Shown here one piece after another: positions 12,554 to 54,391 of a stretch of 64,000 bases of DNA (the stretch's first letter is position 1; the number at the start of each line of letters is the position of its first letter). The stretch lies in NCBI GenBank assembly GCA_001761425.1, contig CP012986.1, positions 575,980 to 639,979 of the forward strand. Direction: 5' to 3'. A program made the position numbers and the translations under genes. Under the pieces are notes generated by a model that made no database searches, had not been told where the DNA came from, and saw only the letters and a program-made list of their open reading frames with translations. This stretch comes from Nanohaloarchaea archaeon SG9. Its GTDB lineage: Archaea; Nanohalarchaeota; Nanosalinia; Nanosalinales; Nanosalinaceae.

Positions 12554-12563
12554 TTTTATTTTT
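12554..12563 (+). promoter_or_regulatory. TATA-like box (ttttattttt) about 28 nt upstream of the giant-gene ATG (12586), implying a leaderless or near-leaderless transcript
   Basis: Position and composition match an archaeal TATA box. There is no SD-like sequence before the ATG at 12586. Confidence 0.3.
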
Positions 12564-12585
12564 GGACGGCTCTCTTATTGTATAC

Positions 12586-15500: not shown

Positions 15501-18500
15501 TGTCACTGTGAATATCACAGCTTCCGATAACTTCGGGATTTCTGACAGGTTTACGGAGTATAATGCTGGACAGGAGGACAGTATCTCTTTCACTCCGAAC
15601 GAGACTGTAGGGCTTGATTTCACTGGTGAAGGCTGGAGGACCCTTGAGGCCTGGATCTATGACAGGGCGTCGAATCTCAGGGAGGTGAGCCTTGACTACG
15701 ATATCGATGATACTGCTCCCTGGGTCAACGTTACTCCTGAAAGTAATAACGAGCCTAAAAACGATACTGCTGTGAAGCCGGATGAAACGTTCAGGATTGA
15801 GGCCTTTGACAGGAATTTTGAGTCTCTGACCGTGAATTCTGTAGGTAACAGTACTTTTTCGAATAATGTCAGTGACTTTGATCCTGAGTGGTCTGGTGGA
15901 AAGGTCAGGGATCTTGAGGTCTGGTTGAATGATTCTGCCGGTAACCAGCGTTTCAGGAATTACAGCTATACTGTTGATGGTCAGGCTCCTGTCTCTGAAG
16001 CGGTTGATACGGCTAATGAGAGTTATGTGAAGAGTGATGATGTTTTGAAGTTCAACTTTTCGGACTCCACTTCCGGAGTTGAAGGTGTCTCCACTTCCAA
16101 GGACAGGGAGAGAGGGGTTGACTGGGATCTTGGTGTAGGCTTTGGCTCGGATGCCAGTGGGGAGACCGATCTATCTGTATCTGCGACTGACCGTGCTGGA
16201 AACACTTTGACGGAGAATTATACCTATACTCTGGACGATGAGCCTCCGGTCGCCGAAACCAATTACAGCCGGGAGGCAGATTCCACGGATGGATGGTTCA
16301 ACAGAGACGTGGAGGTCGAGGTAAACGCCACGGATAACCAGGAGCTAGATACGATTATCTACGGTTCCAGCAGGGATGGAAGTGTATCAGCACCTGAACT
16401 TACAAGTAACACGAACACCAGTATCAAGGTCACCTGTCCGAATTCAAACATCTGTGAAAAAGTTGTAACTTACAACGCCAATGATTCGGCGGGCAACTAC
16501 TTCCGGGATTCCTACAGAGAATCCGAGACAGTTTCAATCGATAAGAAAGCACCTCTGATCGAAATAGGATCTCTCACACAGTCAGGCCTCATCGAGATAG
16601 AATCAGAAATCAGAGATCCTGGTATCGGAGTCCAGGACGCAAGCTTCAGAGTCCTCAACAGGAGCGATACATCACAGGTTCTCGAGTCAGGAGACCTGAA
16701 CGAATCGAATAACTGGTCCTACATCTGGGACTCGGAACAGGATATAGACAGCACACAGGAAGTCACTCTCAAGATAGAGGCCGAGGACAGGTTCCAGCAA
16801 AACAGCACAGAACAGACCGAGTTCAAAGTTGAGAACGAGAAAACAACAGCAACCATAACAAATCCGGAAGACGAGATAGTATCCGACAACTTCGACCTCT
16901 CAATAGAGGCTAACAGGCCTGGAAACTCCGAAGGGCTTAAATGGCATAACTTCACGGTGGATAGGAACGGAGAAGAGGTCTACAGCGAATCAAAGAGCCT
17001 TGAAGGAGCCGATACCCATCTTTTCGACAGGCAGTTCGATACTACAGAGCTGGATGGCGACGGTAATTACAGTTTGAATACTACTGCACTGAGCAATGGG
17101 ACATCAGAGTACGCAACGGCTGAAAAATGGTTCTACCTTGATACCAGGCCTCCAGAGGCCTTGATCGAGACGGATATCAACGATTCATGGGTCACAGGAA
17201 GGATAGAGATAGATTTCGCCGCCTCGGACAGTGTGGGCAACGGAACCCTAGAATCTTACTACATGAATGACTCTGACTGGCAGAGAATGAACAAGAACCT
17301 GAACTACTCGGATAAGGCCTTCAACTTCAGTACCTCCGACAGATGTCAGGACTCTGCCTCGAATACCTGTGGAGTCAAGATCGTCGCTGAGGATAAGGCA
17401 GGTAACCTTAACAGCTCAATGGTGGAGTTCAAAGTCGATAACAGTCCTCCGGAAGTTGATCTGACCGCACCGGATGCTGAGTGGCAGAACTCGAACTTTA
17501 ACGTAGCCAGAAACATCAGTGACAATGTAGTTGACTCGAGAGATCTCTACTGTGAGGTGAAAGTTAACTCTACAGGATGGCGGGAGACACAGCTCTGTAA
17601 CACCAACTACACTGTAGATATCTCGGAAAGCTGCGACAGGGAAGGAGGAATATGTCAGGTCGAGATAAATGCCTCCCATCCAGAACTTCCGCTATACCAG
17701 ACAGATCAGAAGTTCTACTCCATAGACACAGAGCAACCAGAAATATACACAGGACCGGAGCCAGCACCAGAAACAGTAATCAACGGCAGCGAAGATATAA
17801 GCCTAGGATTCCAGGAACCGACCTCAGACATGAACTACTCGAAATGGGACGAAGGAAAAGGCCTGAAAGACCTGGAAACCGACCAACCTTTCAAGCCAGG
17901 ATGGACCGAAAACGGAAACCGGACTTTGGAAATACTGCTGAACGACACGGCAGGAAACCTCAGAACAGAGCAGTACATATACACCTTCGACAACAAAGCC
18001 CCAGAACTCCAGAACTCAGGCCTCTCCGTATCAGAAGACGGATTCTTCGACGAAACCAGGGTGTACAGGGGAGAAGAGATCAAGCTGGAGCTGAACGTAT
18101 CCGAGAACATAGAGATGGAAAAAGTTACTGCCGAGATAAGCAGCGATGGGGAAAACTGGAACAAATCACTTCAACTCGAGGAAGGAAACCTGACCGAAGG
18201 CCTCTGGACCAAAAACCTGGCCAATACGACAACAGGCCTCTACACCGTCCAGAAAGTGTACCTGGAAGATAGAGCAGGGAACAGAACCAGGGTCTCCTCA
18301 AGCCTTCCGGAGTTCAGGATCATGAACTACTCCGAAAACGTTGAGATAGGTGGAATGAAAGAAGTAGATGCAGGGAACAGCACGGATTTCAACTACACAG
18401 TAGATTTCAACAGGACTCAAGGAGAGAGGCAGCTCAAAGTCTACGTTCCGCCCTCCGGTCCGGGAGAAACCTTTGACCCATACTTCCAGCTGGAAAACGT

Positions 18501-21500
18501 ATCCTGTAAAACATCAGAATGTAACGTGACCCATCAGGAAAACTTCTTTAACCTATCATACACCGGAGGAAGCCCTGAGGTATCGGTGACAGCTCATTCA
18601 GAGGCCTTCACTCCTGAACAAGATACTGAAGGTAATTTCACATCTCAACTGCTTGATAACACGAGGAAGAGCGAGGTAAAGATCAGTGCTCCCGAACTGG
18701 AGATAAACAGCAGTTCCTGTAGTCCTGCATGTACGCTGGACCAGTTTGACAGCTTCAACCTGACCCTCGAGCCAGTGAACAATATGACATCTACCAGCAC
18801 CGGTACAGCCCTGAACACGAGTCTCTCTATCTCCTCTGGAGGCCTCGAGGATAGATCGAGAGAACTTGGAAACCTTGGAACTGGAGAAAATCTCAGTGAG
18901 AGGTTCGCGGATATCTCATCGGACGAGGCAGGAAACTTCACCTATGACGCTGTCCTCGAGGATGCTACAGGAGTTTACAGGGACTCAAAGGAGATCGAGG
19001 TAGAGTTCCTGGACGCAGAGGAACCCGATATTGTTGATGCAGGGCCTTCCTCCAGAAGAGTAAACGTCAACGACTCCATAGATCTTCTGGCAGAACTAAC
19101 CGACAACGTCGAAGTCGCCGATGCAAACCTGACCCTTGAATATCCGAACGGCACGGCACAGAACCTCTCCCTGGACAGAGACATAGAAAACGAATGGGCA
19201 AACTCTTTCAACAAAACATCTGAAAAAGGAATCTACCAGCTCAAAAAAGTCTATGCCTCAGACCGGAGAGAAAACACAAACCAGACCACGCTCAACTCAC
19301 AGTTCAAGGTGACAGAACTCAGACTCAACTCCTCTGTTTCAAAGACCAATATACAAAACCGGGAAGCTGTCAACTTCACAGTAAACATAACAGGAAACTC
19401 CACAGAAGTCCAGAGAGTCACGGTAAACGCGTCCACACCAGAAGGCCTCAACCGGTCCAGAGAATACACCGATGTAGGCCTCAACAACACTCTTAAATTC
19501 GACCGGTTCGATAACTCAGGAAACTACTCCTTCAACGTCACGGTAAACGCAGGCCTCAAAGTCACTAATCAGACCTCAGACGTCTTCGTCAGGTACGGGA
19601 ACAGCTCAGTAGAATCTCTGGACTCAGGAAACAACAGGACTCTGGAGATACCGGAGACCATAAGTTCAGCATCCCTTGAATGGAGACTCACACCGATCAA
19701 CGGGAGCCTGAAAAACCTCGCCTTCGAGCCCGGTTCAAATGACGAAACAGTTCTCAGCACAGGATCTGCCCAGAGTGTAGATGATCTCGTCTACACTGAA
19801 GGAGCAAGGACCGAACAGCTTACAGTAAACCCGGAAAACACAGGATCAGCAGATATAACAGCTATCCTCGAGGCAGAAAACGGAGGAAACACGAGTAAAC
19901 AAGTCTCCGTAGAAGTCACAGAACAGGACAATGAAAGGCCTCAGATCAACTCCTTCAACCTATCGGAAAAAGACTTGAACCTTAATGAAACACTCGATTT
20001 CTCTGCAAATATAACAGACAACTCGATAATCAAAAACTCAACGCTAGAGATCGGCTATCCTAACCCGTCAAACGCTACAGAGACCATAAACATGGAGAGA
20101 ATCGGAGAACAGACCTATCAAACGGAGTTCAACAACCTGAACCAGACAGGAAATTACACAGCAACTCTCAAGGCCTACGATATCTCCGGAAACAGCTACA
20201 TGGTCGCAGAGAATTTCACAGTCACCGATAGATACAGTATAGAGATCGATACCGACAAAAGCATATACATGAAGGAAGAAGATGCGGTCATAAGCTTCGA
20301 TGTCCTGGACGCAAGCGGAGATCAGGTCAAAAACTACAGCCTGAACTCCTCGATAGAATACAGCAACTCCAATCATTCACTGGTCGAAGGCCAGAACGTT
20401 TCAAGGACAGAGTTCACAGTTGAAAGAGATTATCCGCCAGATATAACCAATGAACTTGGCGGAGACCCTATCTACTACAGCATATACGCTGAGGCCTCAA
20501 GCAGAGGAAACAAAGGAAAGGCCTCGGCCAGCATGCCGGTTCACAGGGTATTCGACGTAAGTCTGAACAACGATCAGTACGTTGCTCCAGGTGAGAACTT
20601 CCTCGTGACCTCTGACTGGAGAAAGAAGAATGGAGAGCTTCTGCCTCAGACATGGCAGCCGTTTATACTCTGTGATGCCTGTCCAAGCAACTACAAACTC
20701 ATGTTGAGAGATCTGGAGACAGATAATTATGTCAAGAACTTGACAGCCCCGAACCAGACAGGCAGCTATTCCTTCACGCTCAGAGGTTCATACCAGGGTA
20801 ACTCGGAGAGCCAGGATCCTACAGGTGCGGAGGACGAACCTCCATTCGGCACATTCGAAGTCGTACCAGGCGGGAAACCGCCGAACAGTGGCGATGAGGA
20901 ACAGGCTCTGCCTTCAGGAGGCGGTGGAGGATTCTCTGGAGGAGGGCCTTCGATGGAGATTGTAAGACGGTCGCCTCCTCCAAGCATCCCTTCGGGAACC
21001 GAACAGGTGAACCTGTCTGTGAACACCAATATCGCGGCCGAATGCGTTTATTCAAGGAACAGGGTTCCAGAGGCCGTCCCATTCGATGAGGCCTCAGATT
21101 TCCAGGAAACCGGCGGAGTGAATCACAGCACGCCGTTAACTGCAGAAGAAGGTGTGACGTACAGCTACAACATTATGTGTGCCTCTGGCGAAGCCAACTC
21201 GACCCAGGAGATTATTTTCTCCACAGAAACTCTGGAAGGCTTCTCATACGCAGGCCCTACATCAGTCACGCCAAACAACGAGTCCGTATCACAGAAAGGA
21301 AACTACAGTGCAAGAGTAGCTGTCTACAACGAGAAAAGCGAGGCCTTGACCGTAGACCTGGACGTCGAGGGAACCTGCTGCAACCTGAGCTTTATGATCG
21401 GCTCAGAGAAGAAAGAATCGGTCACGATACCGGCTGAAGGAGAGAAAAACCTGGATCTGAACGTCTACTCCCCGCTTCATGTAAAACCAGGATCCTACAA

Positions 21501-30861: not shown

Positions 30862-31431
30862 TTATTTCGTATCAAGAATAAGTTCTGTCCTGTTCTTCAG
30901 CCTCCACTGAACGCTGTCACCTTCTTCCAGCTTCACGATCGCTGACAGTGTCTCCGGGATCTGAACCTTCTTGAAACCATCTTTCCCATCCTGGACTGAG
31001 GCCTCTCCAGCTCTATCGGAGGATCTGAAGCTGTAGGCCTCGATATTCTCCGCATCCATTTTATCCGTCACTTTTTCGTTTGAGTCAGTGAAAAGGATTT
31101 CTGTCCTGATCTCTCTGAAATCTTTCAGCCATTTTAACTGGCTGTGCCTCAAGCCATCGCCCTCTCCTTTGACCTCTACGAAGCAGTAATCTCCGTTGTC
31201 GTCAAAAGCCAGGAAATCCGGTATGCCAGGCCTGAAAACGTTTCCAAGATCTTCAACTCCTTCCCTTCTGACTTTTTCGCTTACCAGGTCACAGGCCTTC
31301 GGAAACTTTTCCTGGAAATCCTCCATAACACCTGGACTGGTCCGTATTACATTGTCCCAGTTACTTTCCAGTACTTCTCTGGCAGCCTTTTCTGTCGGTG
31401 TCAGACCTGGTTTTTCCTCGAAAGGTATCAT
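30862..31431 (-). CDS. VRR-NUC-type PD-(D/E)xK nuclease domain fused to a C-terminal AbrB/SpoVT-like DNA-binding domain
   Basis: 189 aa. GIPDFLAFDDNGDYCFVEVKGEGDGLRHSQLKWL matches the VRR-NUC motif (PD...EVK...Q). The C-terminal VQIPETLSAIVKLEEGDSVQWRL resembles the AbrB/MazE looped-hinge helix. Confidence 0.6.
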   Translation of the reverse strand: MIPFEEKPGLTPTEKAAREVLESNWDNVIRTSPGVMEDFQEKFPKACDLVSEKVRREGVEDLGNVFRPGIPDFLAFDDNGDYCFVEVKGEGDGLRHSQLKWLKDFREIRTEILFTDSNEKVTDKMDAENIEAYSFRSSDRAGEASVQDGKDGFKKVQIPETLSAIVKLEEGDSVQWRLKNRTELILDTK

Positions 31432-31568: not shown

Positions 31569-32432
31569 CTACTGCTGTCCTTCTTTCAGGTCCTCTATCT
31601 TTCCCTTGATCTCTTCACCCATTTCCTCTCCGTTCATGTCTTCAAGGTTTCCTATATCAAAGCTGGAGAGGTCTATATCGCTCACGTTATCCAGGACCTG
31701 CTGGAGGCCTTTCTCGTTTTCCTCTGACTGGAATCCTCCGATCAGTTCTGTCGGGAAGGTTACAATGGTGGAGTTTTCCGCTGCTACAGAGTCCAGAGTC
31801 TGTAGCGTTCTCATGCGGTAGCCTTTGTCACCGATGATCTCTGAGGCCTGACGTAGCTTGACTGCTGCTTCCAGTTCTCCCTGTGCGTTCGTTCTCCTTG
31901 CTCTTCTGTCTCTTTCTGCTTCTGCCTGGGCTGCCATTGCTCTTTCCATCTTTTCCGGCAGATTTATGTTCTGTATCTCGACGTCCAGTACTCTCACTCC
32001 AAAGCTGTCGGTCTTATTGTCCAGCTGGCTTTTGATCTCGTCTCCGATCTCGTCTCTTCTTTGCAGCAGATCGTCCAGTTCCTTTTTACCGACAAGATCT
32101 CTTAAAATACTTGTAGCGTAGTTCAGTGTCTGTTTCTTGTAATCCCCTACATTTACGATCGCGTCCTTGACGTCCTCTGTATTCTCCTTTACCTCGAAAA
32201 AGACCACGCCGTCCACTGAAACCGGGATGTTATCCCTAGTAATCGCCTCCTGCTTCATCACATCCACAGAATCCTCATAGACCGGCACAGTCACCGGCTT
32301 CTCAATAAAAGGTATCTTGAAATGCAGGCCTGATTTTCTGCTTCTTGAATAGCTACCAAATCTCAGGACGATACTTCTCTCCCATTCATCGTTCGTGAAA
32401 AACGGAAAAGGCCCTGAAAGCGAAAAACCCAT
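31569..32432 (-). CDS. SPFH/band-7 (stomatin/prohibitin-like) domain protein
   Basis: 287 aa. EWERSIVLRFGSY...ITRDNIPVSVDGVVFFEV is an SPFH core. It has an Ala/Glu/Arg-rich coiled-coil segment and an acidic C-terminal tail. Confidence 0.8.
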   Translation of the reverse strand: MGFSLSGPFPFFTNDEWERSIVLRFGSYSRSRKSGLHFKIPFIEKPVTVPVYEDSVDVMKQEAITRDNIPVSVDGVVFFEVKENTEDVKDAIVNVGDYKKQTLNYATSILRDLVGKKELDDLLQRRDEIGDEIKSQLDNKTDSFGVRVLDVEIQNINLPEKMERAMAAQAEAERDRRARRTNAQGELEAAVKLRQASEIIGDKGYRMRTLQTLDSVAAENSTIVTFPTELIGGFQSEENEKGLQQVLDNVSDIDLSSFDIGNLEDMNGEEMGEEIKGKIEDLKEGQQ

Positions 32433-33383: not shown

Positions 33384-33425
33384 TAAGCGGATAAAAAATT
33401 ACAGTTCAAAATTAGGAACCCAGAG

Positions 33426-33731
33426 ATGAACTCCGGGACCACAGTTCTTGAAGACGAAGACGAGGAGGAACAGGACAGCTGGAGGTACATGCATTTCCGG
33501 GGCCATGTCTCGGATCAGGAAGTCGAGAAAGCACTTGAACGGAAGTACAGCCATGTCTACAGTACTTTTGTCGAACCTGTTCTCGAAACAGGAGAAGAGT
33601 TCTCTGTCCAGGAACTGATGAACGAGATAAGGCCTCCATACAGTGAGGATGAGATCCAGGGAGCGCTCCAGTACGGTGTTGAGAACGAAGGCCTTGAATA
33701 TGTTTCCAGTGATTCTGTGAAGAAGATTTAA
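33426..33731 (+). CDS. small acidic protein immediately upstream of the Mre11/Rad50-like pair
   Basis: 101-aa ORF ending 6 nt before the Mre11-like start, probably co-transcribed with it. Confidence 0.5.
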   Translation: MNSGTTVLEDEDEEEQDSWRYMHFRGHVSDQEVEKALERKYSHVYSTFVEPVLETGEEFSVQELMNEIRPPYSEDEIQGALQYGVENEGLEYVSSDSVKKI

Positions 33732-33737
33732 GGCTCG

Positions 33738-34787
33738 GTGAATAAATCTGGAGATGTGAGGATAGTTCATACTGCGGACGTCCATCTCTCACAGGACCAC
33801 CCTGAGAGGACGGAAGCGCTTGAAGAGATCATAGAAATATGTGAAAAAGAAAAGGCCGAACTACTTCTGATCACGGGAGACCTCTTCGATGCAAACGTAA
33901 ATATAGAAAATTTGAAGACCGAAGTAAGGCCTCTATTCTCGGAAAACAGTTTCCAGACACTTGTAATACCTGGAAACCACGATAGATCCGCCTTCAGACA
34001 GGAGGATTACTTCGGGGAAGACATCGAAATCCTGCAGGACAAAACTTACTCACAGAAACTGTTCGACGATGTAAACATAGTATCACTGCCTTATACTAGT
34101 AAATCTTTCTCGGAGCTTGTTCAGCCTCTTTCAGAAGCCGTCGAGGAGGACAGGGAAAATATAATGATGATTCACTGTACACTGGCAGGAGCTTCAGGAG
34201 GCTTTGGAGAGGAGACAGAATATCTTCCTGTAAAGCCTTCGGAGATAGTTCAGACAGGTTTTGACTACGTTCTAGCCGGACACATCCATTCATCGGCGAC
34301 AAGAAAAACCTTTGGACAAACCACTTTCGCCTACTCCGGATCACCTGTCTCCATATCAAGCACCGAGATAGGAAAGAGAAAAATCTGGATCCTGGATACA
34401 GAAAAAGGCCTGGAAACCCGCGAAATCGACACAGAATACTTCATAAGAAAGGAAAAAGAGCTTCTGCCCGGAGAGGAAGAAAAAATAGAGGAGGAGATAG
34501 AAGAGGATCTGGAGGAAAAAGACCTGGAAAAGGCCTCAGTTAAAGTAAAGATCCGGGGATTTACAGAGGAGAATGTAGAAGAAATTTCAGAAAGGGTCGA
34601 GAAAACACTGAAAGGCCTTGATCCTGCGGAGGTCAGCGTTGACACATTGAATCTTGAATCTGTTTCCTCGATTGTAGATTCGGAGATCTACAGAGAGTTC
34701 AGGAGGAAGATGGAGGAAAAAAGCTTTGAAAACCCGGAGGAAGTCGAGGAAAAGTTTTTGAGAGGTCTTTCAAGACATGAGCGATAA
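33738..34787 (+). CDS. Mre11/SbcD-family metallophosphoesterase nuclease
   Basis: 349 aa. The phosphoesterase motifs are IVHTADVHL (I), ITGDLFD (II), IPGNHD (III) and LAGHIHS (V). The C-terminal third is acidic and coiled-coil-like. The stop overlaps the start of the Rad50-like gene. Confidence 0.8.
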   Translation: MNKSGDVRIVHTADVHLSQDHPERTEALEEIIEICEKEKAELLLITGDLFDANVNIENLKTEVRPLFSENSFQTLVIPGNHDRSAFRQEDYFGEDIEILQDKTYSQKLFDDVNIVSLPYTSKSFSELVQPLSEAVEEDRENIMMIHCTLAGASGGFGEETEYLPVKPSEIVQTGFDYVLAGHIHSSATRKTFGQTTFAYSGSPVSISSTEIGKRKIWILDTEKGLETREIDTEYFIRKEKELLPGEEEKIEEEIEEDLEEKDLEKASVKVKIRGFTEENVEEISERVEKTLKGLDPAEVSVDTLNLESVSSIVDSEIYREFRRKMEEKSFENPEEVEEKFLRGLSRHER

Positions 34788-36747
34788 ACTGGAGATCAAG
34801 AAAGTGGATATAAGTCATTACGGACCGGTTCATGACCTGGAACTGGATATAGGGGAGGGCCTGAACGCCTTCTACGGGAAGAACGAGTCAGGTAAGACAT
34901 TGATCGTCGAGGCCCTGACAAAGATGCTTACAGAAGATTCCTCCGATTTTGACGGGATCGGCCGTGTCCCTCAACAGCCTAACGGCCTTCTAACCGTGGA
35001 AAAAGATGGCAGAGAGTTCGATGTTTCCCAGGAAAGCCTTGGAGAGATATTCGGTGACGTGACTGCTGGAGATATCAGGAACGCGTTTGTTGTCCGGGAC
35101 TTTGATCTCAGGCTTCCGGAGAGGGAAAACGATTTCGGCAACGGCGATTACTTCAAAGACGTGACCGACAGGGTTCTCGGCTCGAAGACCCAGAAAATAG
35201 AATCTCTGCGAAGTGAAATATCGGATGTAGGCTTCCTGACCAACAAAACCAGTGAAGCAGGCCTTGAAAACAGGAAAAGTTCAGGAAAACTGGCTGACAG
35301 GAAAGAGAAAGCCGAAAGCCTGAGAAACGAGATCGAAGAATTCACGGATCAAGTCGAAGAGGAAGACCTTTACGGGAAGTACTCGAAGATAGACTCTCTG
35401 GAGAAAAAGATAAATTCGAAACACAGAGAAATAAACGAGCTGGAAAACGCCAGGAAACAGAAAAAACACGGTAAAGGCCTTCAACTACTGAAAAATCTCA
35501 GACAGGCAGAGGAAAAAATCCAGGAAATCAAAAAGGAGAGACACGGATTCGAGGAACTGGACGAACTCAGGAAAAAAGCTGAGGCCTTCCAGGAAAAAGA
35601 GGTAAAGGTCCAGGGTTCAAAAACAGGAGCTCTGGTATCAGGCCTTGTATCTCTGAGTGCCTTCACCGCAGCCGCGTTCAACCCTGTACTCCTCGTTATC
35701 GGTGCAGCCGTTGTTTCCCTATTCGTCGCAGCTTTCTTCGCTGAAAAATACAGGAGAAGTTCAAAGCAGGTCAGGAAGCAGGAGAAAGAAAAAGAAAAAA
35801 TTATAGAAAATGCAGAGGCCAGAGAAATCGAAACTTCTTCAATACCTGGCGTTGTCAAAGCAGTGGACAGCTACGAGGAAGAACTGGATAGAAAAGAGAA
35901 AAAAGCCGACAAAAGGAAAAGCCAGACACTGGGCGAGCTTAAAGGCCTTTTCAACGCTGACCTGGAGAGCATAGAGGACTGGCAGAAGGAGCTGGACAGT
36001 TTCTCCAACAGTTTTGAATCTGTCGACCGACAGTTCGAAGAAGGAGACCTCGAAAAAGCTGAAAAAAACGTTGAAGAGCTTGAAACGAAGAAAGAAAGTC
36101 TTGAAGAAGACATAGAAGAATACGATGAAGTGATCGCCAATTTTGACACAGCTATTTCGGATGCGATAGCCGAAAGGTTCGTGGAGAACGAGGTAGTTGA
36201 CCTGGCTACTGTCCAGGATCTTGATAAGGCCTTGAGGCAGCTAGATGAATTTATCTCGACTCTTGAAGACGGTGTTCAGGCCTCTGTTGATGCTATCAGT
36301 GTGCTTGAAGAGATGGAGGAGGAAGAGGAGGATGAGTTCAACAAAGTGTTCGATGAGGGCAGTTATGCTGTCGAAATGTTCAGGGAGGCGACAGACAGTA
36401 ACTACACTGATATAAAGTATGATAAGGCCTCTAGGAAGATCAAGGTCGTGCGTAAGGATGATAGAGAGCTTGAGCCGGAGGCCCTGAGTCAGGGGACGTA
36501 TGATCTTCTGTACATGGCTGTCAGGTTGAAGCTTGCGAAAGAGATTCTTGGAGGTCCTGGCTTCCTGATACTGGATAATGCCTTCGTTCACTCGGATAGA
36601 GAAAGAGTGGAAAAAGAGATCGAGTTCCTGGAAAAACTTGAGGATGAAGGATGGCAGATAATCTATTTCACGTTTAGAGATGACGTAAGAAAGATTCTCG
36701 AGGAAAGAACAGAAGTTGAGGACCTTGAAGGCCTTCAATTCCAGTAA
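34777..36747 (+). CDS. Rad50/SbcC-like SMC-type ATPase, short (656 aa), with a central ~40-residue hydrophobic hairpin in place of a zinc hook
   Basis: The N-terminus has Walker A FYGKNESGKT. The C-terminus has the signature LSQGT, Walker-B-like FLILDNAF and a D-loop HSD. The middle is a K/E-rich coiled coil interrupted by GALVSGLVSLSAFTAAAFNPVLLVIGAAVVSLFVAAFFAEKY. The protein contains no cysteine, so no CxxC hook is possible. Confidence 0.75.
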   Translation: MSDKLEIKKVDISHYGPVHDLELDIGEGLNAFYGKNESGKTLIVEALTKMLTEDSSDFDGIGRVPQQPNGLLTVEKDGREFDVSQESLGEIFGDVTAGDIRNAFVVRDFDLRLPERENDFGNGDYFKDVTDRVLGSKTQKIESLRSEISDVGFLTNKTSEAGLENRKSSGKLADRKEKAESLRNEIEEFTDQVEEEDLYGKYSKIDSLEKKINSKHREINELENARKQKKHGKGLQLLKNLRQAEEKIQEIKKERHGFEELDELRKKAEAFQEKEVKVQGSKTGALVSGLVSLSAFTAAAFNPVLLVIGAAVVSLFVAAFFAEKYRRSSKQVRKQEKEKEKIIENAEAREIETSSIPGVVKAVDSYEEELDRKEKKADKRKSQTLGELKGLFNADLESIEDWQKELDSFSNSFESVDRQFEEGDLEKAEKNVEELETKKESLEEDIEEYDEVIANFDTAISDAIAERFVENEVVDLATVQDLDKALRQLDEFISTLEDGVQASVDAISVLEEMEEEEEDEFNKVFDEGSYAVEMFREATDSNYTDIKYDKASRKIKVVRKDDRELEPEALSQGTYDLLYMAVRLKLAKEILGGPGFLILDNAFVHSDRERVEKEIEFLEKLEDEGWQIIYFTFRDDVRKILEERTEVEDLEGLQFQ

Positions 36748-36776: not shown

Positions 36777-37157
36777 TTACTTTTCTGAGGCCTCTTCTTC
36801 GGCTTTTTCGCTTTCTTTGTTGTCGAGGAATGGTTGGCAGATTTTGTGGCTGAAGGATTTGAAGTAGAAGATCGATACTGTGAATGACAGTGATACTGCT
36901 GCTATCAGGACTGCGATAAACAGGTAGTTGGCAAACCTGACAAGTGGATGGCATCCGCACAGCACCATGTCGCTTGATGCGATAATTGAGAGCCTGGAAA
37001 AGGCCTGGAGAGCGACCAGGAACATCACTCCCGATACCAGTATATCTTTCTCCTTGCTCGTGTCGAACATAAGGAAACAGTCGAGGTTTCTACTATTATA
37101 CTTTTGTGAAACAGTAATGGAACCCGGATCTTTTTTCCGGAACCTTTTTCCATTCAA
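36777..37157 (-). CDS. hypothetical small membrane protein
   Basis: An ORF with 2-3 hydrophobic helices and an acidic C-terminal tail. The start is probably the internal Met (end about 37070). This call is weak. Confidence 0.35.
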   Translation of the reverse strand: MNGKRFRKKDPGSITVSQKYNSRNLDCFLMFDTSKEKDILVSGVMFLVALQAFSRLSIIASSDMVLCGCHPLVRFANYLFIAVLIAAVSLSFTVSIFYFKSFSHKICQPFLDNKESEKAEEEASEK

Positions 37158-45476: not shown

Positions 45477-48047
45477 GTGAAGACTCAAAAAGCAAAGAAT
45501 CTTGACCAGGTCTACGAAGAAGTCAGAGAATATGACCTGGTTATCACCGCAGAGGCCTCGACAGCTGACTCACTGAAGCGGAGACTTGAAGAAACCAAAC
45601 TCGGCAGATTCGCAGTCACACCTCAGAGACTGGCATACGGCGACGAACTCGCAGAAGAAGATTTCAAGCGAGACATATTTCTCAAACTCGTCAAAGAAGA
45701 AGGCCTTCGCTGGAAACAGGCATCTTACCTTCTCAGGAACGCTATAAGCTGCTGGAAAGAATGCGGAGACCTAGAAAAAGTGAAAGAACACGGCTTCACA
45801 GGCGAGGCAATGGAGAAAGTCATAAAGATCCTGCAAAATACTGACAACCCGCTCAAAGCCCTGGAAAATTACAGAGTCCCGGAGGATAAAAATGTGGCGG
45901 TCCTGGCACCTTACCAGTTAAACGAACTGGATAAAAAAATCCTGCCGGACGATTACGAGGAGATAGGCCTCTTCCTTGACGATGAACAGGATTTACCGGA
46001 GTTCAAGGTCTTTAATTCATCGAACGAGCTGATACAGGCCCTGAAAGAAAGTATAGAAAAAGTGGGGCCTCAGAACGCCGGTGTCGTCGTCGATCCTTCT
46101 TCCGGTTACCAGGCCTTGCTTGAGTCTGCTCTGGAGTCCTCTGATATTCCCTATCTGAAGCAGCAGGATCTTTCTGAGGACGAGGATCTGAGGACTTTTC
46201 TCTCCCTGATGCGTACAGGCCTCTCTTCGAAGCGTGTGCGTGTGAAAGATATAAGACCTGTTTTACAGGAGTTGAACGTGCCTGTCTCCTCCGTTGAGAG
46301 CGAGAAGTTTATCGAGGATCTTGAGGAGGGAAGGCTTCAGGAGTTCAGAGATGTTTTCTCAATGATGCAGCATCTGCCGTTCGAAGAAGTGGTGAGAAAG
46401 TACGAAGAGTTCACAGGGAGACATCTCGGACCGGTGAAATCTATACTGAGTGAGCTTGACGTCGAAGATGAAATGGTCTCAGAGGCACGTATAAACCAAA
46501 TAGAGTATTACCTAGACAGTTTCGCACCAAGCGAAGACATAGAGGAGGACGGGGTTCTGTTCGCCGATCCGAAAAAGGTCTCACGTGTTGACAGACCGGC
46601 AGTCTTTTTCGTTGGCATGGATACAGAATGGAGACAGGAGCCTGAGAACCTGGCATGGATAGATCAGGAGAAAAGGGAAAAAGAGAATTTGAAAGACTTC
46701 AGATCGCTGCTTCAGAGCGGGAAACCGGTTTTCATGGTCCAGGACAGGGAGATGAACGAGGACATCAAGCCCTGCTTCTATCTCAACGAGCTGATCGATG
46801 AAGATTTCCAGAACTTCCGCCAGCTACCGCACAGACGTGTAAGGCCTGAAGAGACAGAGACAGAGACAGGCTTCGAACGCCAAGGCCTGGAAATCGAACA
46901 GGAAGAAGTGGAGGTCCTGAGCCAGTCCTCTCTCAATGATTTTGCGATGTCCCCACGCTACTACTACATCTCCAAACTTGTCTCCGACGTCGATGAAGAA
47001 GCCCTGGAAAAAGGAAACCTGTTCCATGACTACGCAGAGTTCTACGTCAACTATCCAGGCTTTATGGACGATAAAGGAGATGAAGAAGTCATCAGTTTCA
47101 TGATGAACAGGATAAGGCCTTTTGCCGATGACCTGGATCTTGAGAAGCTGGAGACAGAGTTCAAGGTAGGCCTGAAAAATATCAGAGAGTTCATCAAGAA
47201 CAGAGATATCTCGAGAGAGGAGATAGACGGCTACGAGAAAAAAGACAGGGATGAAAACGTGTTCTCAGAGGAGTACGGAAAACCGGTCCGGTCAAAGATA
47301 ACAGAACTCTGGTTCAAGGACAAGGATCTGGGAGGTAAGGGAAAAATCGATTTCCTCCAGGACCAGCAGAACCTTATCGATTACAAGTCAGGGAGAAGAA
47401 AATCTGAGAAAAAAGTCGTCAAGAAATCAAAAGTCGCTTTACACGGCGACGAGCAGTATCCTAACTTCCAGGCACCGATGTACCTAGCCTACCACCGCAA
47501 AAAGAACCCCGGAGAAAAAATTAACTTCACATTCTTCCATTTCCTCGACAACCTCGGCGATGAGGTAACAGGTAAGGCCTCAAACGGCGATAACGTTGTA
47601 ACAGTTACATACTACCCGGAAAAATTCAGCAAAGCGGTCGCATCCAACCAGGCCTTCGAACTACTGATAAAAGACGTTGCGAAGAGCAACGACCGGAGGA
47701 AAACCCTGGAAAAACTTGGCTGTCACCAGTTCAAAAAGTTCATGGAGGAAAACGAGTTCCCGAAGACGCATGACAAGAAAGAGGTTCTGGCCTCCAAGTT
47801 CGCCGAGGATTTCAAGGCCTATGCGAAGAAAGAGGTAGGAGACTACAAATACGTGAAAAACGGGGTTAAATCCGCGTTAAAAAAACTCGTTGAGTTCCAC
47901 ACCGAGAACTATTTCAGGGATGATATTGATCTCTTCGAGGAGTTTCTTGAGGAGAAGCTGGAGGAGTTGAACGATTACAGAGGAACCAGGTTCCCACTGG
48001 ATGCAAAAGCAGATAACATACCTGAAAGAGACCTGATAGTCAAATGA
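45477..48047 (+). CDS. AddB-like subunit: inactivated helicase-like N-terminus with a C-terminal RecB-family PD-(D/E)xK nuclease
   Basis: 856 aa with no Walker A. The C-terminus has SLNDFAMSPRYYY (Cas4/AddB-type nuclease N-motif), LFHDYAEFY and GKIDFLQDQQNLIDYKSG (RecB nuclease motif III). The ATGA stop/start overlaps the next gene. Confidence 0.6.
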   Translation: MKTQKAKNLDQVYEEVREYDLVITAEASTADSLKRRLEETKLGRFAVTPQRLAYGDELAEEDFKRDIFLKLVKEEGLRWKQASYLLRNAISCWKECGDLEKVKEHGFTGEAMEKVIKILQNTDNPLKALENYRVPEDKNVAVLAPYQLNELDKKILPDDYEEIGLFLDDEQDLPEFKVFNSSNELIQALKESIEKVGPQNAGVVVDPSSGYQALLESALESSDIPYLKQQDLSEDEDLRTFLSLMRTGLSSKRVRVKDIRPVLQELNVPVSSVESEKFIEDLEEGRLQEFRDVFSMMQHLPFEEVVRKYEEFTGRHLGPVKSILSELDVEDEMVSEARINQIEYYLDSFAPSEDIEEDGVLFADPKKVSRVDRPAVFFVGMDTEWRQEPENLAWIDQEKREKENLKDFRSLLQSGKPVFMVQDREMNEDIKPCFYLNELIDEDFQNFRQLPHRRVRPEETETETGFERQGLEIEQEEVEVLSQSSLNDFAMSPRYYYISKLVSDVDEEALEKGNLFHDYAEFYVNYPGFMDDKGDEEVISFMMNRIRPFADDLDLEKLETEFKVGLKNIREFIKNRDISREEIDGYEKKDRDENVFSEEYGKPVRSKITELWFKDKDLGGKGKIDFLQDQQNLIDYKSGRRKSEKKVVKKSKVALHGDEQYPNFQAPMYLAYHRKKNPGEKINFTFFHFLDNLGDEVTGKASNGDNVVTVTYYPEKFSKAVASNQAFELLIKDVAKSNDRRKTLEKLGCHQFKKFMEENEFPKTHDKKEVLASKFAEDFKAYAKKEVGDYKYVKNGVKSALKKLVEFHTENYFRDDIDLFEEFLEEKLEELNDYRGTRFPLDAKADNIPERDLIVK

Positions 48048-50785
48048 CAGAAGAATCACGTGAGGTCAGTCCTAACAGGCAACAGCAGAAACTTATAGAT
48101 AACATTGAAGGCCTTTACCTGGTAAACGCCGGTGCAGGGACTGGAAAAACTTTTACTATAACTCATCGCTACATCGAGATACTGGATGAGGTGGAGCCGG
48201 AGGATATCTTCCTTGCTACCTTTACAAGGAACGCTGCGGACGAGATGGCAGAGAGGATTGTATCAGAATCTGATTACCAGGCCTCGGATATCTGGGATGC
48301 TCCGATCTCGACTTTTCACAGTCACTGCCAGAAGATACTGGAGAGAAACGGCTTTTCAGTGCCGGAGGAACTGGGAATCCAGGACAGCATAGAGAACATC
48401 GATGTCCTGGAAAGCCAGATACGTGAACGCCAGGAATTCCACCGGTTCATGGACCGATTTATAGAAAACAACCCTGAGTACTCAAATTTCTACAGGATCT
48501 CACGTAACTACGATAATTTCCTGCACCTGATCAAATCCCTGGCCTCCAAAGGCATTATACCGGAGAAAGAAGGATGGTACCGCGACACAGAGGCCTTCCT
48601 CAACGGAGATAAAAAAGAGTTCATGGAGCTGTTCGAGGAAGCAAACAGGCCAAGACACAGCAGTAACGGCAAGAGACAGAGCGATCTTCGAAACAGGCTC
48701 TACAGCTACAGGTACAAGAACTTTCCCGAAGACGCGCCGGAGGGAGAGGAAGTCCGCGGAGGATACGGTACAAAAACTGTGAGAAAGGATTTTGGGGAAA
48801 AGGCCTTTGAAGAGGATAGAGAAGAACTCAAGGCCTTTGTACATGATCTTTACTTCGAGTACGTCCGTTACTGTCTTTCAAGAAACTATCTTAATTTCTC
48901 GTTCCTGATGATGTTCGCCTACGTCCTTCTGAGAGAAAATGAGTACGTCAGGAGGCAGGAGAGCTTCGAGTATATGATGATTGACGAGTTTCAGGATACT
49001 AACCCCCTCCAGTTCAAGCTTGCGTTGCTTCTGGCGGAGAGGCCTAATATAGCGGTTGTAGGTGACTGGAAGCAGAGTATTTACAGTTTCCAGTATGCTT
49101 CTGTAGAAAATATTCAGGAGTTCCGTCAGCGCCTGAAAGATTTCAGGGATGAGCTGAATCAGGAGAGGGAGAGAGTGAGTTTTTCCGTCGAAGGCGTCGA
49201 GGAGATCGAGCTGAGGAAAAACTACCGCTCCACCCAGGACATACTGGACTATGCGGAGCAGAGTCTCCAGTTATCTGCGAATAAGTACGAGGAGGTCGAT
49301 GAAAAAGATGTTACAGGCCTTGAATCTGAGATAGAGAATCAGGAGTCAAGTATTGAGAAATACATTGCTGAGGAAGAGGTAGAGGCCGTGCTGACAGAGA
49401 TCCTTGAGATAGTTGACAACGAGGATTACAGGTATGGAGACGAGAACAAAAAGCTGGATTTCAGGGATATAGCAGTTCTGACCCGTACCCGTGGTTTCGG
49501 CCTTCAGCTCCAGGAGGAGGCCCGTGAACACGGTATCCCCGTCGCCTATGAGGGAGGTGTAGAACTTTTCAAGACGAATCCTGCGATCCTTCTCCTCGCG
49601 TGGCTCCGCGTACTTAACAACGAGGATTCCAGGAAGGGCTGGGCTGTGATCCTTGAAGAAGCCGGTTACAGGCTTGAAGAAGCAAAGAAAATTCTCGATC
49701 CCGAGGAAGAAGAATACAAGTATCCCGAGGATATGGAAGAGTTCCGGGAGCGTCTGGAAGGCCTTGAATCGATAAGTTCTGTAGCGAGAACGGTCTTCCA
49801 CAGGTATGGATATTCGAACGCATTCACTGACAAAATAATAGAAGTTCTAAGCAATGTTTTCACGTCAAGCTACATGAATCTAGGTGAACTGATCCAGTTC
49901 ATACAGGAGAATATCGAGGAAAACGAGATATACGAGGTCGATTCATCGCGTAACAGGAATACCGTCAAAATACAGACGATACACGCAGCGAAAGGCCTTG
50001 AGTACCCTGCTGTCTTTATCTCGGACGTGAACCAGGGAAAGTTCCCGTCGAAGAACTCTGATTCCAAGGCTATCACCTATGCGGATCCTGTAGGCCTCAG
50101 GCAGAGAAAAATCTACAGGAACGGAGGCCTTGCATTTGAGTATGATAACTGGAGGACTGAGATCCTCATGAAATGTCTTTCCGGGAACTACGATGAAGAG
50201 AGAAGGCTGATGTACGTCGCCATGACCAGGGCACAGCAGCATCTCTTTATCACAGCGGAGAAGGATCGGGGATCAACGTTCTTTGAAGGCCTCAGTGGAG
50301 AACCGGAGCTGCTGGAAGCTGATGTCGAGGATGTAAAAGTCGATAAAGAGGACCTGGAAGTATTCGAAGTGGAGAGTGTAAACTCAGAAAGAAATGAGCT
50401 GAGATCCGTCCATTCAGAACTTGATGTGGTTGAAGGAGATAAGGAAAAAGGCAACGGTCTACATGAGTTCGCTGAGGCCTATGCTAACGGAGAGGATGTA
50501 GAGGCCTCGAACAGCAGGGAAAAAGAGGTCAAGGAATTTATAGATTCCCTGGAAGGTGAGTTAGAGGCTGAAAAGCATGTCAGCATACCGGTTGACGGAA
50601 AAGTCTATGAAAGCGTGATAGACCTGGTACACGTGACTGAGGAGAAAGTTGAGGTCATAGATTACAAGACGGACTCAAATCCTGATAACATGAAGGAGTA
50701 CCAGAAACAGGTCGAATGCTACAGGAAAGGCCTTGAACAAATATTTGACAGGCCTGTGGAGAAAAGGATAGTGACTCTGGAATGA
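48044..50785 (+). CDS. AddA/UvrD-like SF1 helicase with a C-terminal RecB-family nuclease domain
   Basis: 913 aa. It carries Walker A NAGAGTGKT and motifs Ia TFTRNAADEM, II MIDEFQDTNP, III VGDWKQSIYSFQ, IV YRSTQ, V TIHAAKGLEYPAVF and VI YVAMTRAQQHLFI. The C-terminal nuclease motif is VIDLVHVTEEKVEVIDYKTD. Confidence 0.8.
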   Translation: MTEESREVSPNRQQQKLIDNIEGLYLVNAGAGTGKTFTITHRYIEILDEVEPEDIFLATFTRNAADEMAERIVSESDYQASDIWDAPISTFHSHCQKILERNGFSVPEELGIQDSIENIDVLESQIRERQEFHRFMDRFIENNPEYSNFYRISRNYDNFLHLIKSLASKGIIPEKEGWYRDTEAFLNGDKKEFMELFEEANRPRHSSNGKRQSDLRNRLYSYRYKNFPEDAPEGEEVRGGYGTKTVRKDFGEKAFEEDREELKAFVHDLYFEYVRYCLSRNYLNFSFLMMFAYVLLRENEYVRRQESFEYMMIDEFQDTNPLQFKLALLLAERPNIAVVGDWKQSIYSFQYASVENIQEFRQRLKDFRDELNQERERVSFSVEGVEEIELRKNYRSTQDILDYAEQSLQLSANKYEEVDEKDVTGLESEIENQESSIEKYIAEEEVEAVLTEILEIVDNEDYRYGDENKKLDFRDIAVLTRTRGFGLQLQEEAREHGIPVAYEGGVELFKTNPAILLLAWLRVLNNEDSRKGWAVILEEAGYRLEEAKKILDPEEEEYKYPEDMEEFRERLEGLESISSVARTVFHRYGYSNAFTDKIIEVLSNVFTSSYMNLGELIQFIQENIEENEIYEVDSSRNRNTVKIQTIHAAKGLEYPAVFISDVNQGKFPSKNSDSKAITYADPVGLRQRKIYRNGGLAFEYDNWRTEILMKCLSGNYDEERRLMYVAMTRAQQHLFITAEKDRGSTFFEGLSGEPELLEADVEDVKVDKEDLEVFEVESVNSERNELRSVHSELDVVEGDKEKGNGLHEFAEAYANGEDVEASNSREKEVKEFIDSLEGELEAEKHVSIPVDGKVYESVIDLVHVTEEKVEVIDYKTDSNPDNMKEYQKQVECYRKGLEQIFDRPVEKRIVTLE

Positions 50786-53383: not shown

Positions 53384-54391
53384 ATGATTGTCCAGGATGC
53401 ACGTGTTCTGCGCGATGACTTTATCCCGAAAGAGGTTGTCCACAGAGATTCCGAGGTACAGGAGCTTTCAAGAGCTCTGGAACCGCTGGTGGAAAATGAA
53501 CAGGCGCGCAACATACTTCTGTACGGGCCTCCAGGAACAGGGAAAACCTGTCTTTCACAGTACGTCATGGAAAAACTGGAGGAGGAACTCCTTGACTTTA
53601 ACTACATGTATATCAACTGCTGGGAAAACTACAACAGGTTCAAAGTCCTTTATAAAGCGTTAGAAGGAGTCGGGAAGACTTTACACGTCCACAGACAGTC
53701 AACACCTACAGATGAACTTTATTCAAAGCTGAAAGATTACGACAGGGCACCTTATGTACTGATACTTGATGAGGTCGACCAGTTAGAGGATGAAAAAGTC
53801 CTTTACGATCTTCAAGGCCTTAACAACGTACATATCGTGATGATAGCGAACACCCAGGAATCTGTTTTCTACAACATGGATGACAGAGTCAGAAGCAGAC
53901 TGATCGACTCGAAGAGAATCCAGTTCAAGGCTTACACCTCTGATCAGTTACAGGATATACTCATGGACCGTGCGGAGTGGGGTCTAGATTCTTCTGCTGT
54001 CGATTCTTCTCTTATCAAAAAGATCGCTCTCTCCTCGGAAGGTGATGCACGCATAGCGATTGGAGTTCTACGTGCAGCGGCCAGGATGGCTGAGGAAAGA
54101 GATAAGAAAGAGATTACCCGGGATATGATACAGGAAGCAGTTCCAGAAGCGAAGGACAACAACAAGAAGAAAAACGAAGAGAAACTGAACAACCACCAGG
54201 AGAAACTGTACGAAATAGTAAACGAGGAAGAAGAGATCCAGCCCGGCGATCTCTACGAAAAATACAGAGAAGCCATGGATGAACCGAAAAGCGACAGGAT
54301 GCTCAGAAAATACCTTCAGAAAATGGATCACTACAACCTGATAGAAGCCGAAGGAGAAGGTCGCTGGCGAAAATATCGGTCAGTGGAATGA
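53384..54391 (+). CDS. orc1: Orc1/Cdc6 replication initiator (AAA+ with C-terminal winged helix)
   Basis: 335 aa. LLYGPPGTGKT is Walker A and VLILDEVD is Walker B. The HRDSEVQELSRALEPL N-terminal pattern is Orc1-like. The C-terminus has the winged-helix-like LYEKYREAM...RKYLQKM... Confidence 0.8.
   Translation: MIVQDARVLRDDFIPKEVVHRDSEVQELSRALEPLVENEQARNILLYGPPGTGKTCLSQYVMEKLEEELLDFNYMYINCWENYNRFKVLYKALEGVGKTLHVHRQSTPTDELYSKLKDYDRAPYVLILDEVDQLEDEKVLYDLQGLNNVHIVMIANTQESVFYNMDDRVRSRLIDSKRIQFKAYTSDQLQDILMDRAEWGLDSSAVDSSLIKKIALSSEGDARIAIGVLRAAARMAEERDKKEITRDMIQEAVPEAKDNNKKKNEEKLNNHQEKLYEIVNEEEEIQPGDLYEKYREAMDEPKSDRMLRKYLQKMDHYNLIEAEGEGRWRKYRSVE

Follow-up and report, generated by a model that had tools for sequence, protein, structure and literature searches.

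What kind of machine is encoded where a Mre11/SbcD-type nuclease gene is followed by a Rad50-like ATPase gene that lacks the zinc hook? The question is raised by a locus of Nanohaloarchaea archaeon SG9, analysed here within a stretch of 64,000 nucleotides (nt) (contig CP012986.1, positions 575,980 to 639,979 of the forward strand; hereafter the window, in which positions are counted from the first letter). Three tightly packed open reading frames (ORFs) lie on the same strand of this locus:

33426-33731, + strand: small acidic ORF (101 amino acids (aa), isoelectric point 4.3; begins with ATG)
33738-34787, + strand: Mre11/SbcD-fold (YhaO/SbcF-like) metallophosphoesterase nuclease (349 aa, GTG start)
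34777-36747, + strand: YhaN/SbcE-like SMC/Rad50-type ABC ATPase (656 aa)

Within the Mre11-Rad50/SbcCD superfamily we place the locus in the YhaO/YhaN (SbcF/SbcE) branch, as an archaeal member with short arms and a membrane-hairpin, hydrolysis-poor mechanism, and give this reading a probability of about 0.6. A first annotation of the window, made from its sequence (hereafter the original prediction), had described a membrane-tethered SbcCD/Rad50-Mre11 paralog; this was essentially right, but the pair belongs to the known YhaN/YhaO family and is no one-off, and membrane insertion is something we infer. The features of the locus are not random, since they are conserved in homologs down to ~20% identity.

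In Bacillus subtilis, SbcE (YhaN) is the SMC-like protein closest to SbcC and is devoid of CxxC; its unique central domain, kept in all homologs, is hydrophobic in its first half, contains a conserved proline and is completely insoluble when expressed, and its gene is located directly downstream of yhaO, which encodes the SbcD-like nuclease SbcF (Krishnamurthy et al. 2009, PMC2811018). The B. subtilis mutants are sensitive to double-strand breaks and have a mild transformation defect, and SbcE and SbcF gather at the poles of competent cells (PMC2811018). The window locus resembles this system in its gene order (SbcD-like nuclease first, then SMC-like ATPase), in the absence of a CxxC hook, in the conserved hydrophobic central domain, in a Walker B followed by (A/G)F(V)H(S/F)D, and in a colinear head-hairpin-head similarity. 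The last was established with a Listeria locus located on a 2.9-Mb replicon, which carries yhaO (411 aa), yhaN (907 aa) and yhaM as consecutive genes and whose YhaN has the Walker A GENEAGKST, the Walker B IIIDDGFVHFD, one cysteine without CxxC, and a lysine-flanked, uncharged stretch of 42 residues (429-470). BLASTP of the window ATPase against Listeria YhaN gave three colinear matches (N-terminal head, E = 2.8e-5; centre including the hairpin, 5.8e-4; C-terminal head, 3.4e-13, 36% identity), and the window nuclease matched Listeria YhaO (8.6e-11). The ATPase scored 60 bits against the C-terminal head of Listeria YhaN (BLASTP) versus 24.8 bits against Pyrococcus furiosus Rad50 (phmmer). Profile-profile comparison with the long YhaN-type proteins (900-1200 aa) reached a probability of 100% (E = 6e-42), in the C-terminal head only. 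Pfam AAA_27, a short generic region, was matched at 22.0 bits (cut-off 22) by residues 7-51 only of the window ATPase and, again only in the short P-loop region, by 35/35 aligned homologs (E < 1e-3). Several of the ATPase homologs are labelled 'uncharacterized protein YhaN' by the Joint Genome Institute.

The differences from the Bacillota system concern mainly size and nucleotide-binding residues. YhaN proteins have ~300-aa heptad regions and a total of ~900-1000 aa (907-1066 aa among the proteins compared), whereas the window ATPase has 656 aa and arms of ~110 and ~200 residues, about half as long; it falls in a short-armed subfamily of 640-790 aa, apart from the proteins of 900-1200 aa. Its Walker B reads DN versus the DD of YhaN, the histidine of the 'TCH' of long YhaN is replaced ('TFR'), the nuclease has 349 aa versus the 411 aa of YhaO, no yhaM lies downstream in the window, and the host is an archaeon whose protein is extremely acidic.

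The relation to canonical Rad50-Mre11 and SbcC-SbcD is more distant. An ABC head fold, an antiparallel coiled coil, translationally coupled genes, and a nuclease-plus-capping fold with all metal ligands are shared with them; a zinc hook, cysteine, the catalytic glutamate and the H-loop histidine are all absent from the window ATPase, and no linked HerA or NurA was found in the window. The original prediction that the ATPase is cysteine-free, and so without a CxxC zinc hook, is confirmed by the count (0 Cys; D/E/K/R amount to 39% of the residues), as is its shorter length, ~220 aa less than archaeal Rad50 (NCBIfam profiles of 872-888 positions). The NCBIfam equivalogs for Rad50 and Mre11 scored 22-47 bits overall versus cut-offs of 500-1000; those for Rad50, at 41.9 bits (cut-off 700), 33.8 (1000) and 21.9 (1000), fell more than 10-fold short. 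Three further NCBIfam candidates were rejected as compositional or generic similarity far under the cut-offs: ASRP (34.6 versus 300), TrlF (29.3 versus 350) and a mycoplasma two-transmembrane family (28.9 versus 125).

The family is very large. A profile search of 1.84 billion representative proteins retrieved 1,975 representatives at E < 1e-30, and detailed motif statistics were obtained for 182 full-length members, to which the family counts below refer. A phyletic scan of one genome per species found archaeal holders in Nanohaloarchaeota, Halobacteriales (Natronomonas, Haloparvum, Halorubrum), Thor- and Lokiarchaeota, Thermoplasmatales and Hadarchaeota, and bacterial ones in Bacillota/Clostridia, Fervidobacterium, Anaerolineae, Leptospira, Bacteroidales, KSB1, Zixibacteria, Planctomycetota and others. 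CxxC was present in only three relatives (absent in 179). In ~80 of 88 loci of many phyla the gene just upstream, on the same strand and in most cases overlapping or abutting, encodes a nuclease homolog; a pattern search found its motifs (D.H, GD, GNHD, GH.H) intact in 71/81. The nuclease-ATPase pair is kept in every nanohaloarchaeal genome sampled.

The AlphaFold2 model of the window ATPase (predicted local distance difference test, pLDDT, 77) contains a split ABC head and long, confident helices (170-301 and 305-525) joined by a turn at N302-P303. Foldseek retrieved Rad50, JetC, SMC, Smc5/6 and LmuB, and the top structural and PDB-sequence matches were Rad50. The nucleotide-binding motifs are located as follows:

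34876-34899, + strand: Walker A GKNESGKT (residues 34-41; G34, N36, E37, G39 and K40 invariant in the family)
36484-36498, + strand: ABC signature motif LSQGT (residues 570-574; L570, S571 and T574 invariant)
36562-36579, + strand: Walker B FLILDN (residues 596-601; N601 at the catalytic-carboxylate position, aligned to LLILDE of P. furiosus Rad50)
36589-36597, + strand: D-loop HSD (residues 605-607; D607 invariant)
36655-36675, + strand: H-loop equivalent QIIYFTF (residues 627-633; Phe at the place of the switch His, aligned to QVILVSH of Rad50)

The ATPase family profile matches P. furiosus Rad50 with E = 4.5e-19, and the alignment sets LLILDEPTPYLD opposite FLILDNAFVHSD and QVILVSHD opposite QIIYFTFR, placing N601 at the position of the catalytic glutamate and F633 at that of the H-loop switch histidine. 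The loss of this histidine is a second deviation, absent from the original prediction, and it is general: the column was never His in the 182 relatives (A 102, F 31, S 17, V 15, others), and long YhaN proteins have a His one residue past it. The first deviation had been described as Walker B DN instead of DE; N601 does align to the catalytic glutamate of Rad50, but the norm of the family is DD, so that the change is one of D to N within the nanohaloarchaeal clade. Walker B and the next residue read DD in 144 relatives, DN in 28, DE in seven and DS in two. In neighbour-joining trees all DN sequences and one DS form a single clade of 29, including named Nanosalina and Nanohalobium proteins, whose sister is a DD/DE clade; DT and DS were found in further nanohaloarchaeal genomes. 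This distribution indicates that the second acid disappeared at the root of the nanohaloarchaeal clade and that the position has since drifted among N, S and T. Walker A, signature motif and D-loop are invariant among sequences 44-73% identical.

E-to-Q mutants of ABC/SMC ATPases bind ATP and trap the engaged heads. The presence of Asn, Ser or Thr at the second acid, while the other ATP-binding motifs remain invariant, suggests an ATP-binding, hydrolysis-poor switch, and the motifs, as aligned, predict that the ATPases of the nanohaloarchaeal clade engage their heads in an ATP-dependent manner with little or no hydrolysis. Among the SbcCD structures matched in the PDB are a 'resting' state with ATPγS and cutting states with bound ADP.

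The nuclease is an Mre11/SbcD-family phosphoesterase with motifs I-V intact, as had been proposed:

33777-33785, + strand: nuclease motif I, DVH
33876-33890, + strand: nuclease motif II, GDLFD
33972-33983, + strand: nuclease motif III, GNHD
within 34170-34178, + strand: nuclease motif IV, H146
34278-34289, + strand: nuclease motif V, GHIH

It matches Pfam Metallophos (E = 1.4e-16), its best PDB sequence matches are SbcD and Mre11, and the metal ligands D14, H16, D48, N80, H81, H146, H182 and H184 are invariant across 34 homologs. Its AlphaFold2 model (pLDDT 91.3) shows the Mre11 fold, in which a β-rich capping region accompanies the phosphoesterase core, with two helices at the C-terminus (316-327, 333-348); its top 50 Foldseek matches in the PDB are all Mre11/SbcD. 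It remains under every NCBIfam Mre11/SbcD cut-off (TIGR00619 sbcd, 59.5 versus 77.65; Mre11_Halo, 42.6 versus 550).

The place of the zinc hook is taken by a hydrophobic hairpin, and the ~40-residue uninterrupted hydrophobic segment that had been noted at the apex of the coiled coil was found at residues 283-322:

35623-35742, + strand: uncharged hydrophobic hairpin at the coiled-coil apex (helix 1, 283-301; N-P turn; helix 2, 304-322)

Its sequence, TGALVSGLVSLSAFTAAAF-NP-VLLVIGAAVVSLFVAAFFA, followed on the C-terminal side by EKYRRSSKQVRKQEK, is free of any charge over 40 residues (Kyte-Doolittle 19-residue maximum 2.79); the apparent free energy of insertion, delta-G(app), is -2.6 kcal/mol for helix 2 and +2.7 for helix 1. 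A central hydrophobic segment is present in 178 of the 182 relatives, in Listeria YhaN (429-470) and in the Paenibacillus homolog P0241. The uncharged run has a median of 39.5 aa and a core rich in L, A, G, V, I, F and S; the 19-residue window of lowest delta-G(app) (Hessa scale) is central in 182/182 and negative in 128; and in the 15-residue flanks K/R is enriched (3.7 in the C-terminal flank versus a background of 2.28) and D/E is depleted (2.0 versus 3.0). From these patterns the hairpin is best read as a membrane anchor with both ends cytoplasmic, the topology required by an ABC head built from the N- and C-termini, and it is also the predicted apex dimerisation element in place of the zinc hook.

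Together, these elements would work as follows. The SbcD-fold nuclease would bind the base of the ATPase coiled coil via its C-terminal helices, by analogy with Mre11-Rad50, 316-327 and 333-348 being the candidates, and two ATPase chains, whose binding motifs are intact, would engage their ABC heads around ATP. The coiled-coil arms (~110 residues on the N-terminal side) would end in the two-helix hairpin, inserted in the cytoplasmic membrane with both flanks inside, and this Gly/Ala/Ser-rich hairpin probably also gives apex-to-apex association, as the hook does in Rad50. The nuclease head would thereby be kept within ~15 nm of the membrane, where it may process DNA ends or hairpins, comparable to the roles that genetics has assigned to B. 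subtilis SbcE in double-strand-break repair and transformation. With Asn, Ser or Thr in Walker B and no H-loop His, ATP hydrolysis would be very slow or absent, as in a natural 'EQ' mutant, and the nanohaloarchaeal complex would be a clamp or switch that binds ATP, not a cycling motor.

The alternative that survives best accepts this mechanism and differs only in the cellular role: after loss of canonical Rad50, Mre11, HerA and NurA, the pair would be the only Mre11-Rad50 equivalent of a reduced genome of ~1.1 Mb, performing general break-end processing together with an AddAB-like pair. We consider this a possible but tentative role. It is consistent with the lack of a second Rad50/Mre11-like ORF in the 64-kb window (tblastn) and of HerA or NurA among the window ORFs scanned, with the PD-(D/E)XK nuclease and UvrD/AddA-like pair at 45477-50785, and with the retention of the nuclease-ATPase pair in all sampled nanohaloarchaeal genomes despite genome reduction. 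The search, however, covered 64 kb of the ~1.1-Mb genome; B. subtilis carries SbcC alongside SbcE (PMC2811018); the family occurs in Halobacteriales, the order where Haloferax is reported to have canonical Mre11-Rad50 (PMC2700283); and a hydrolysis-poor ATPase would be an odd choice for the sole complex of this kind. The original prediction that no HerA or NurA partners are adjacent holds for the locus.

The AddAB-like pair consists of two overlapping genes on the + strand, 45477-48047 and 48044-50785, encoding an 856-aa PD-(D/E)XK nuclease-domain protein and a 913-aa UvrD-type helicase (NCBIfam AddA, 187 bits; full-length RecB-like PRK13909 match; all under the cut-offs). Lying 9 kb from the YhaO/YhaN genes, it looks like end-resection machinery of the bacterial type carried by a DPANN archaeon.

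Several observations weigh against the membrane-anchored, hydrolysis-poor, YhaN-like reading. Helix 1 is only marginally hydrophobic, with its positive delta-G(app), and in B. subtilis SbcE fused to yellow fluorescent protein also formed foci on nucleoids, in ~10% of growing cells (PMC2811018). Both points, as well as the suitability of Gly/Ala/Ser-rich helices for tight packing, would fit a hairpin located outside the membrane and buried at the centre of a soluble four-helix bundle that joins two apices, a protein-only substitute for the hook. This seems improbable to us: such a bundle would need amphipathic helices, but those of the hairpin are hydrophobic on all faces, ~40 residues being chargeless in a protein of which 39% is charged; the flanks follow the positive-inside pattern throughout the family; both helices have the bilayer-spanning length of 19 residues; and the central domain of B. 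subtilis SbcE was completely insoluble on expression (PMC2811018). Other points weighing against the membrane-anchored YhaN-like reading are the low AlphaFold2 confidence over the hairpin (pLDDT 51-71), the weak likeness to bona fide YhaN outside the heads (E = 5.8e-4), and the catalytic role of the second Asp of 'DD', which rests on alignment, so that another residue could serve as the base. Finally, the C-terminal helical arm (326-525, ~200 residues) is far longer than the N-terminal one (170-282, ~110), and must therefore hold an extra helical insert or fold-back. In the model the C-terminal arm is broken at 349-355, 393-398, 411-423 and 464-480.

Nanohaloarchaeota are obligate ectosymbionts of haloarchaea with minimal biosynthetic capacity. 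It is conceivable, if quite unlikely, that in this phylum loss of the catalytic acid has turned the membrane complex into a non-hydrolysing, ATP-gated clamp or exonuclease at the inner face of the membrane, capturing and processing incoming host-derived DNA for uptake or nucleotide scavenging and not for repair; the polar, competence-associated localisation of B. subtilis SbcE/SbcF is echoed by this idea.

The suggestion of the original prediction that the pair is an envelope-located defence or restriction module cutting incoming foreign DNA is the least probable of all: a membrane tether would place the nuclease at the site of DNA entry, SMC-like ATPases act in Lamassu and Wadjet, and PADLOC gave weak similarities (LmuB, 24.6 bits, E = 3e-6; small ORF to LmuC, E = 0.026), but these matches are generic to SMC heads (24-28 bits) or non-significant, neither the window nor any of 8 homologous loci inspected has defence genes beside the pair (neighbours metabolic or housekeeping, and variable), the GC content equals that of the surroundings (~0.46), no true plasmid or phage copies occur in the collections searched (PLSDB, INPHARED), the small ORF is not conserved, and the pair looks vertically conserved and near-universal in the clade, unlike patchy defence islands. 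The defence-island hypothesis was likewise not supported. The ATPase does share an SMC/ABC head and coiled coil with Lamassu LmuB, Wadjet JetC, PtuA and Gabija GajA, and JetC and LmuB were among its Foldseek matches; it differs from these defence ATPases in its partner (an Mre11-fold nuclease, not LmuA, JetD or similar), its membrane-type hairpin, its housekeeping context and the generic level of its PADLOC similarity (<=28 bits). A Lamassu-like identity was rejected, there being no LmuA, JetABD or similar genes nearby. The INPHARED 'phage' matches (unannotated Staphylococcus and Listeria) and the PLSDB 'plasmid' match were rejected as mobile copies as well, being host yhaN genes: OR850024, OR845005, OR848367 and others, probably host DNA, contain the C-terminal head of a YhaN-like protein, and the Listeria monocytogenes 2.9-Mb replicon NZ_CP030101.1 (954074-966394), listed in PLSDB as 'plasmid unnamed' with 12 annotated features, carries the chromosomal yhaO-yhaN-yhaM operon.

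The upstream neighbours of the locus encode a FtsH-like AAA protein, a VRR-NUC protein, a SPFH/Band 7 protein and a lipoprotein-like ORF; those downstream an acylphosphatase, a cold-shock protein, a HAD hydrolase and a folylpolyglutamate synthase; the remainder of the window is metabolic. Conservation does not extend beyond the nuclease-ATPase pair in other nanohaloarchaea, on the contig of homolog P0031 or on a contig of Fermentibacteria, where the flanks differ. The VRR-NUC gene (30862-31431, - strand) adjoins the SPFH/Band 7 gene (31569-32432, - strand), and in three nanohaloarchaeal genomes no more than a few kb separate both genes from the pair (also L006, 6052-7607, and L008, 14117-15777), which could be plain synteny or a functional link.

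The small acidic ORF, which had been counted as a member of the module, did not prove to be one. Searches of Pfam, NCBIfam, PADLOC and PDB sequences gave no match for it, and homologs were found in only three of ~11 nanohaloarchaeal loci (L006 and L009, adjacent to the pair, and L010, 4 kb away). An accessory role like that of a kleisin or LmuC was rejected, given the non-significant PADLOC value for LmuC and the absence of the ORF from most nanohaloarchaeal loci. It is a lineage-specific ORF outside the conserved module, although here it is probably co-transcribed with the pair.

The layout of the three ORFs had been correctly drawn, including their coordinates and translational coupling: the small ORF is separated from the nuclease gene by 6 nt, and the nuclease and ATPase genes overlap by 11 nt. 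A second GTG at 33756 would give a 343-aa nuclease, the length of most homologs, and is a possible true start. Two putative transcription signals flank the ORFs:

33391-33400, + strand: A/T-rich TATA-like box (ATAAAAAATT), ~26 nt 5' of the ATG of the small ORF, read from the sequence
36785-36816, + strand: T-rich tract with T-runs, past the stop codon of the ATPase gene

The box is a candidate archaeal promoter for a leaderless or short-leader transcript of all three genes, the spaces among them being too small for a promoter. A sigma-70 promoter scan, a model not relevant to an archaeon, gave nothing in the + orientation. The T-rich tract is a possible archaeal oligo-T terminator; shuffled sequence folds as well as the RNA of the 3' region, so the T-runs are the sole evidence for termination.

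The SbcE/SbcF branch of the superfamily is essentially unstudied since 2009, and a literature search on nanohaloarchaeal Rad50, Mre11, SbcCD, HerA, NurA and AddAB and on later YhaN work yielded nothing beyond PMC2811018. As published, the hallmarks of SbcE/SbcF are a missing CxxC, a hydrophobic central domain and an SbcD-like neighbour gene; the central domain of SbcE is nowhere treated as a membrane anchor in the literature searched. What is new, at the level of sequence, is the family-wide evidence pointing to a membrane hairpin, the family-wide absence of His at the column aligned to the H-loop of Rad50, and the clade-wide loss of the putative catalytic acid in Nanohaloarchaeota. A hairpin with K/R-rich flanks is near-universal in a family spanning Bacillota, Chloroflexota, Thermotogota, Leptospira, Halobacteria, and Asgard and DPANN archaea. 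If the proposed reading is true, Rad50-like machines can exchange the zinc hook for a membrane hairpin, and ATP hydrolysis is dispensable in at least one lineage. The cysteine-free ATPase is a convenient model for cysteine-scanning topology work, and genes of this type are better named YhaN/YhaO-like than Rad50/Mre11 or generic 'ATP-binding protein'.

Other genes of the window include a giant orphan ORF of 3224 aa (12562-22236, + strand; no Pfam match at E < 1e-3), two ATPases of the KaiC/RadA superfamily (22272-23807, + strand; 23864-24550, - strand), and an Orc1/Cdc6 AAA+ protein (53384-54391, + strand), which may mark a nearby replication origin.

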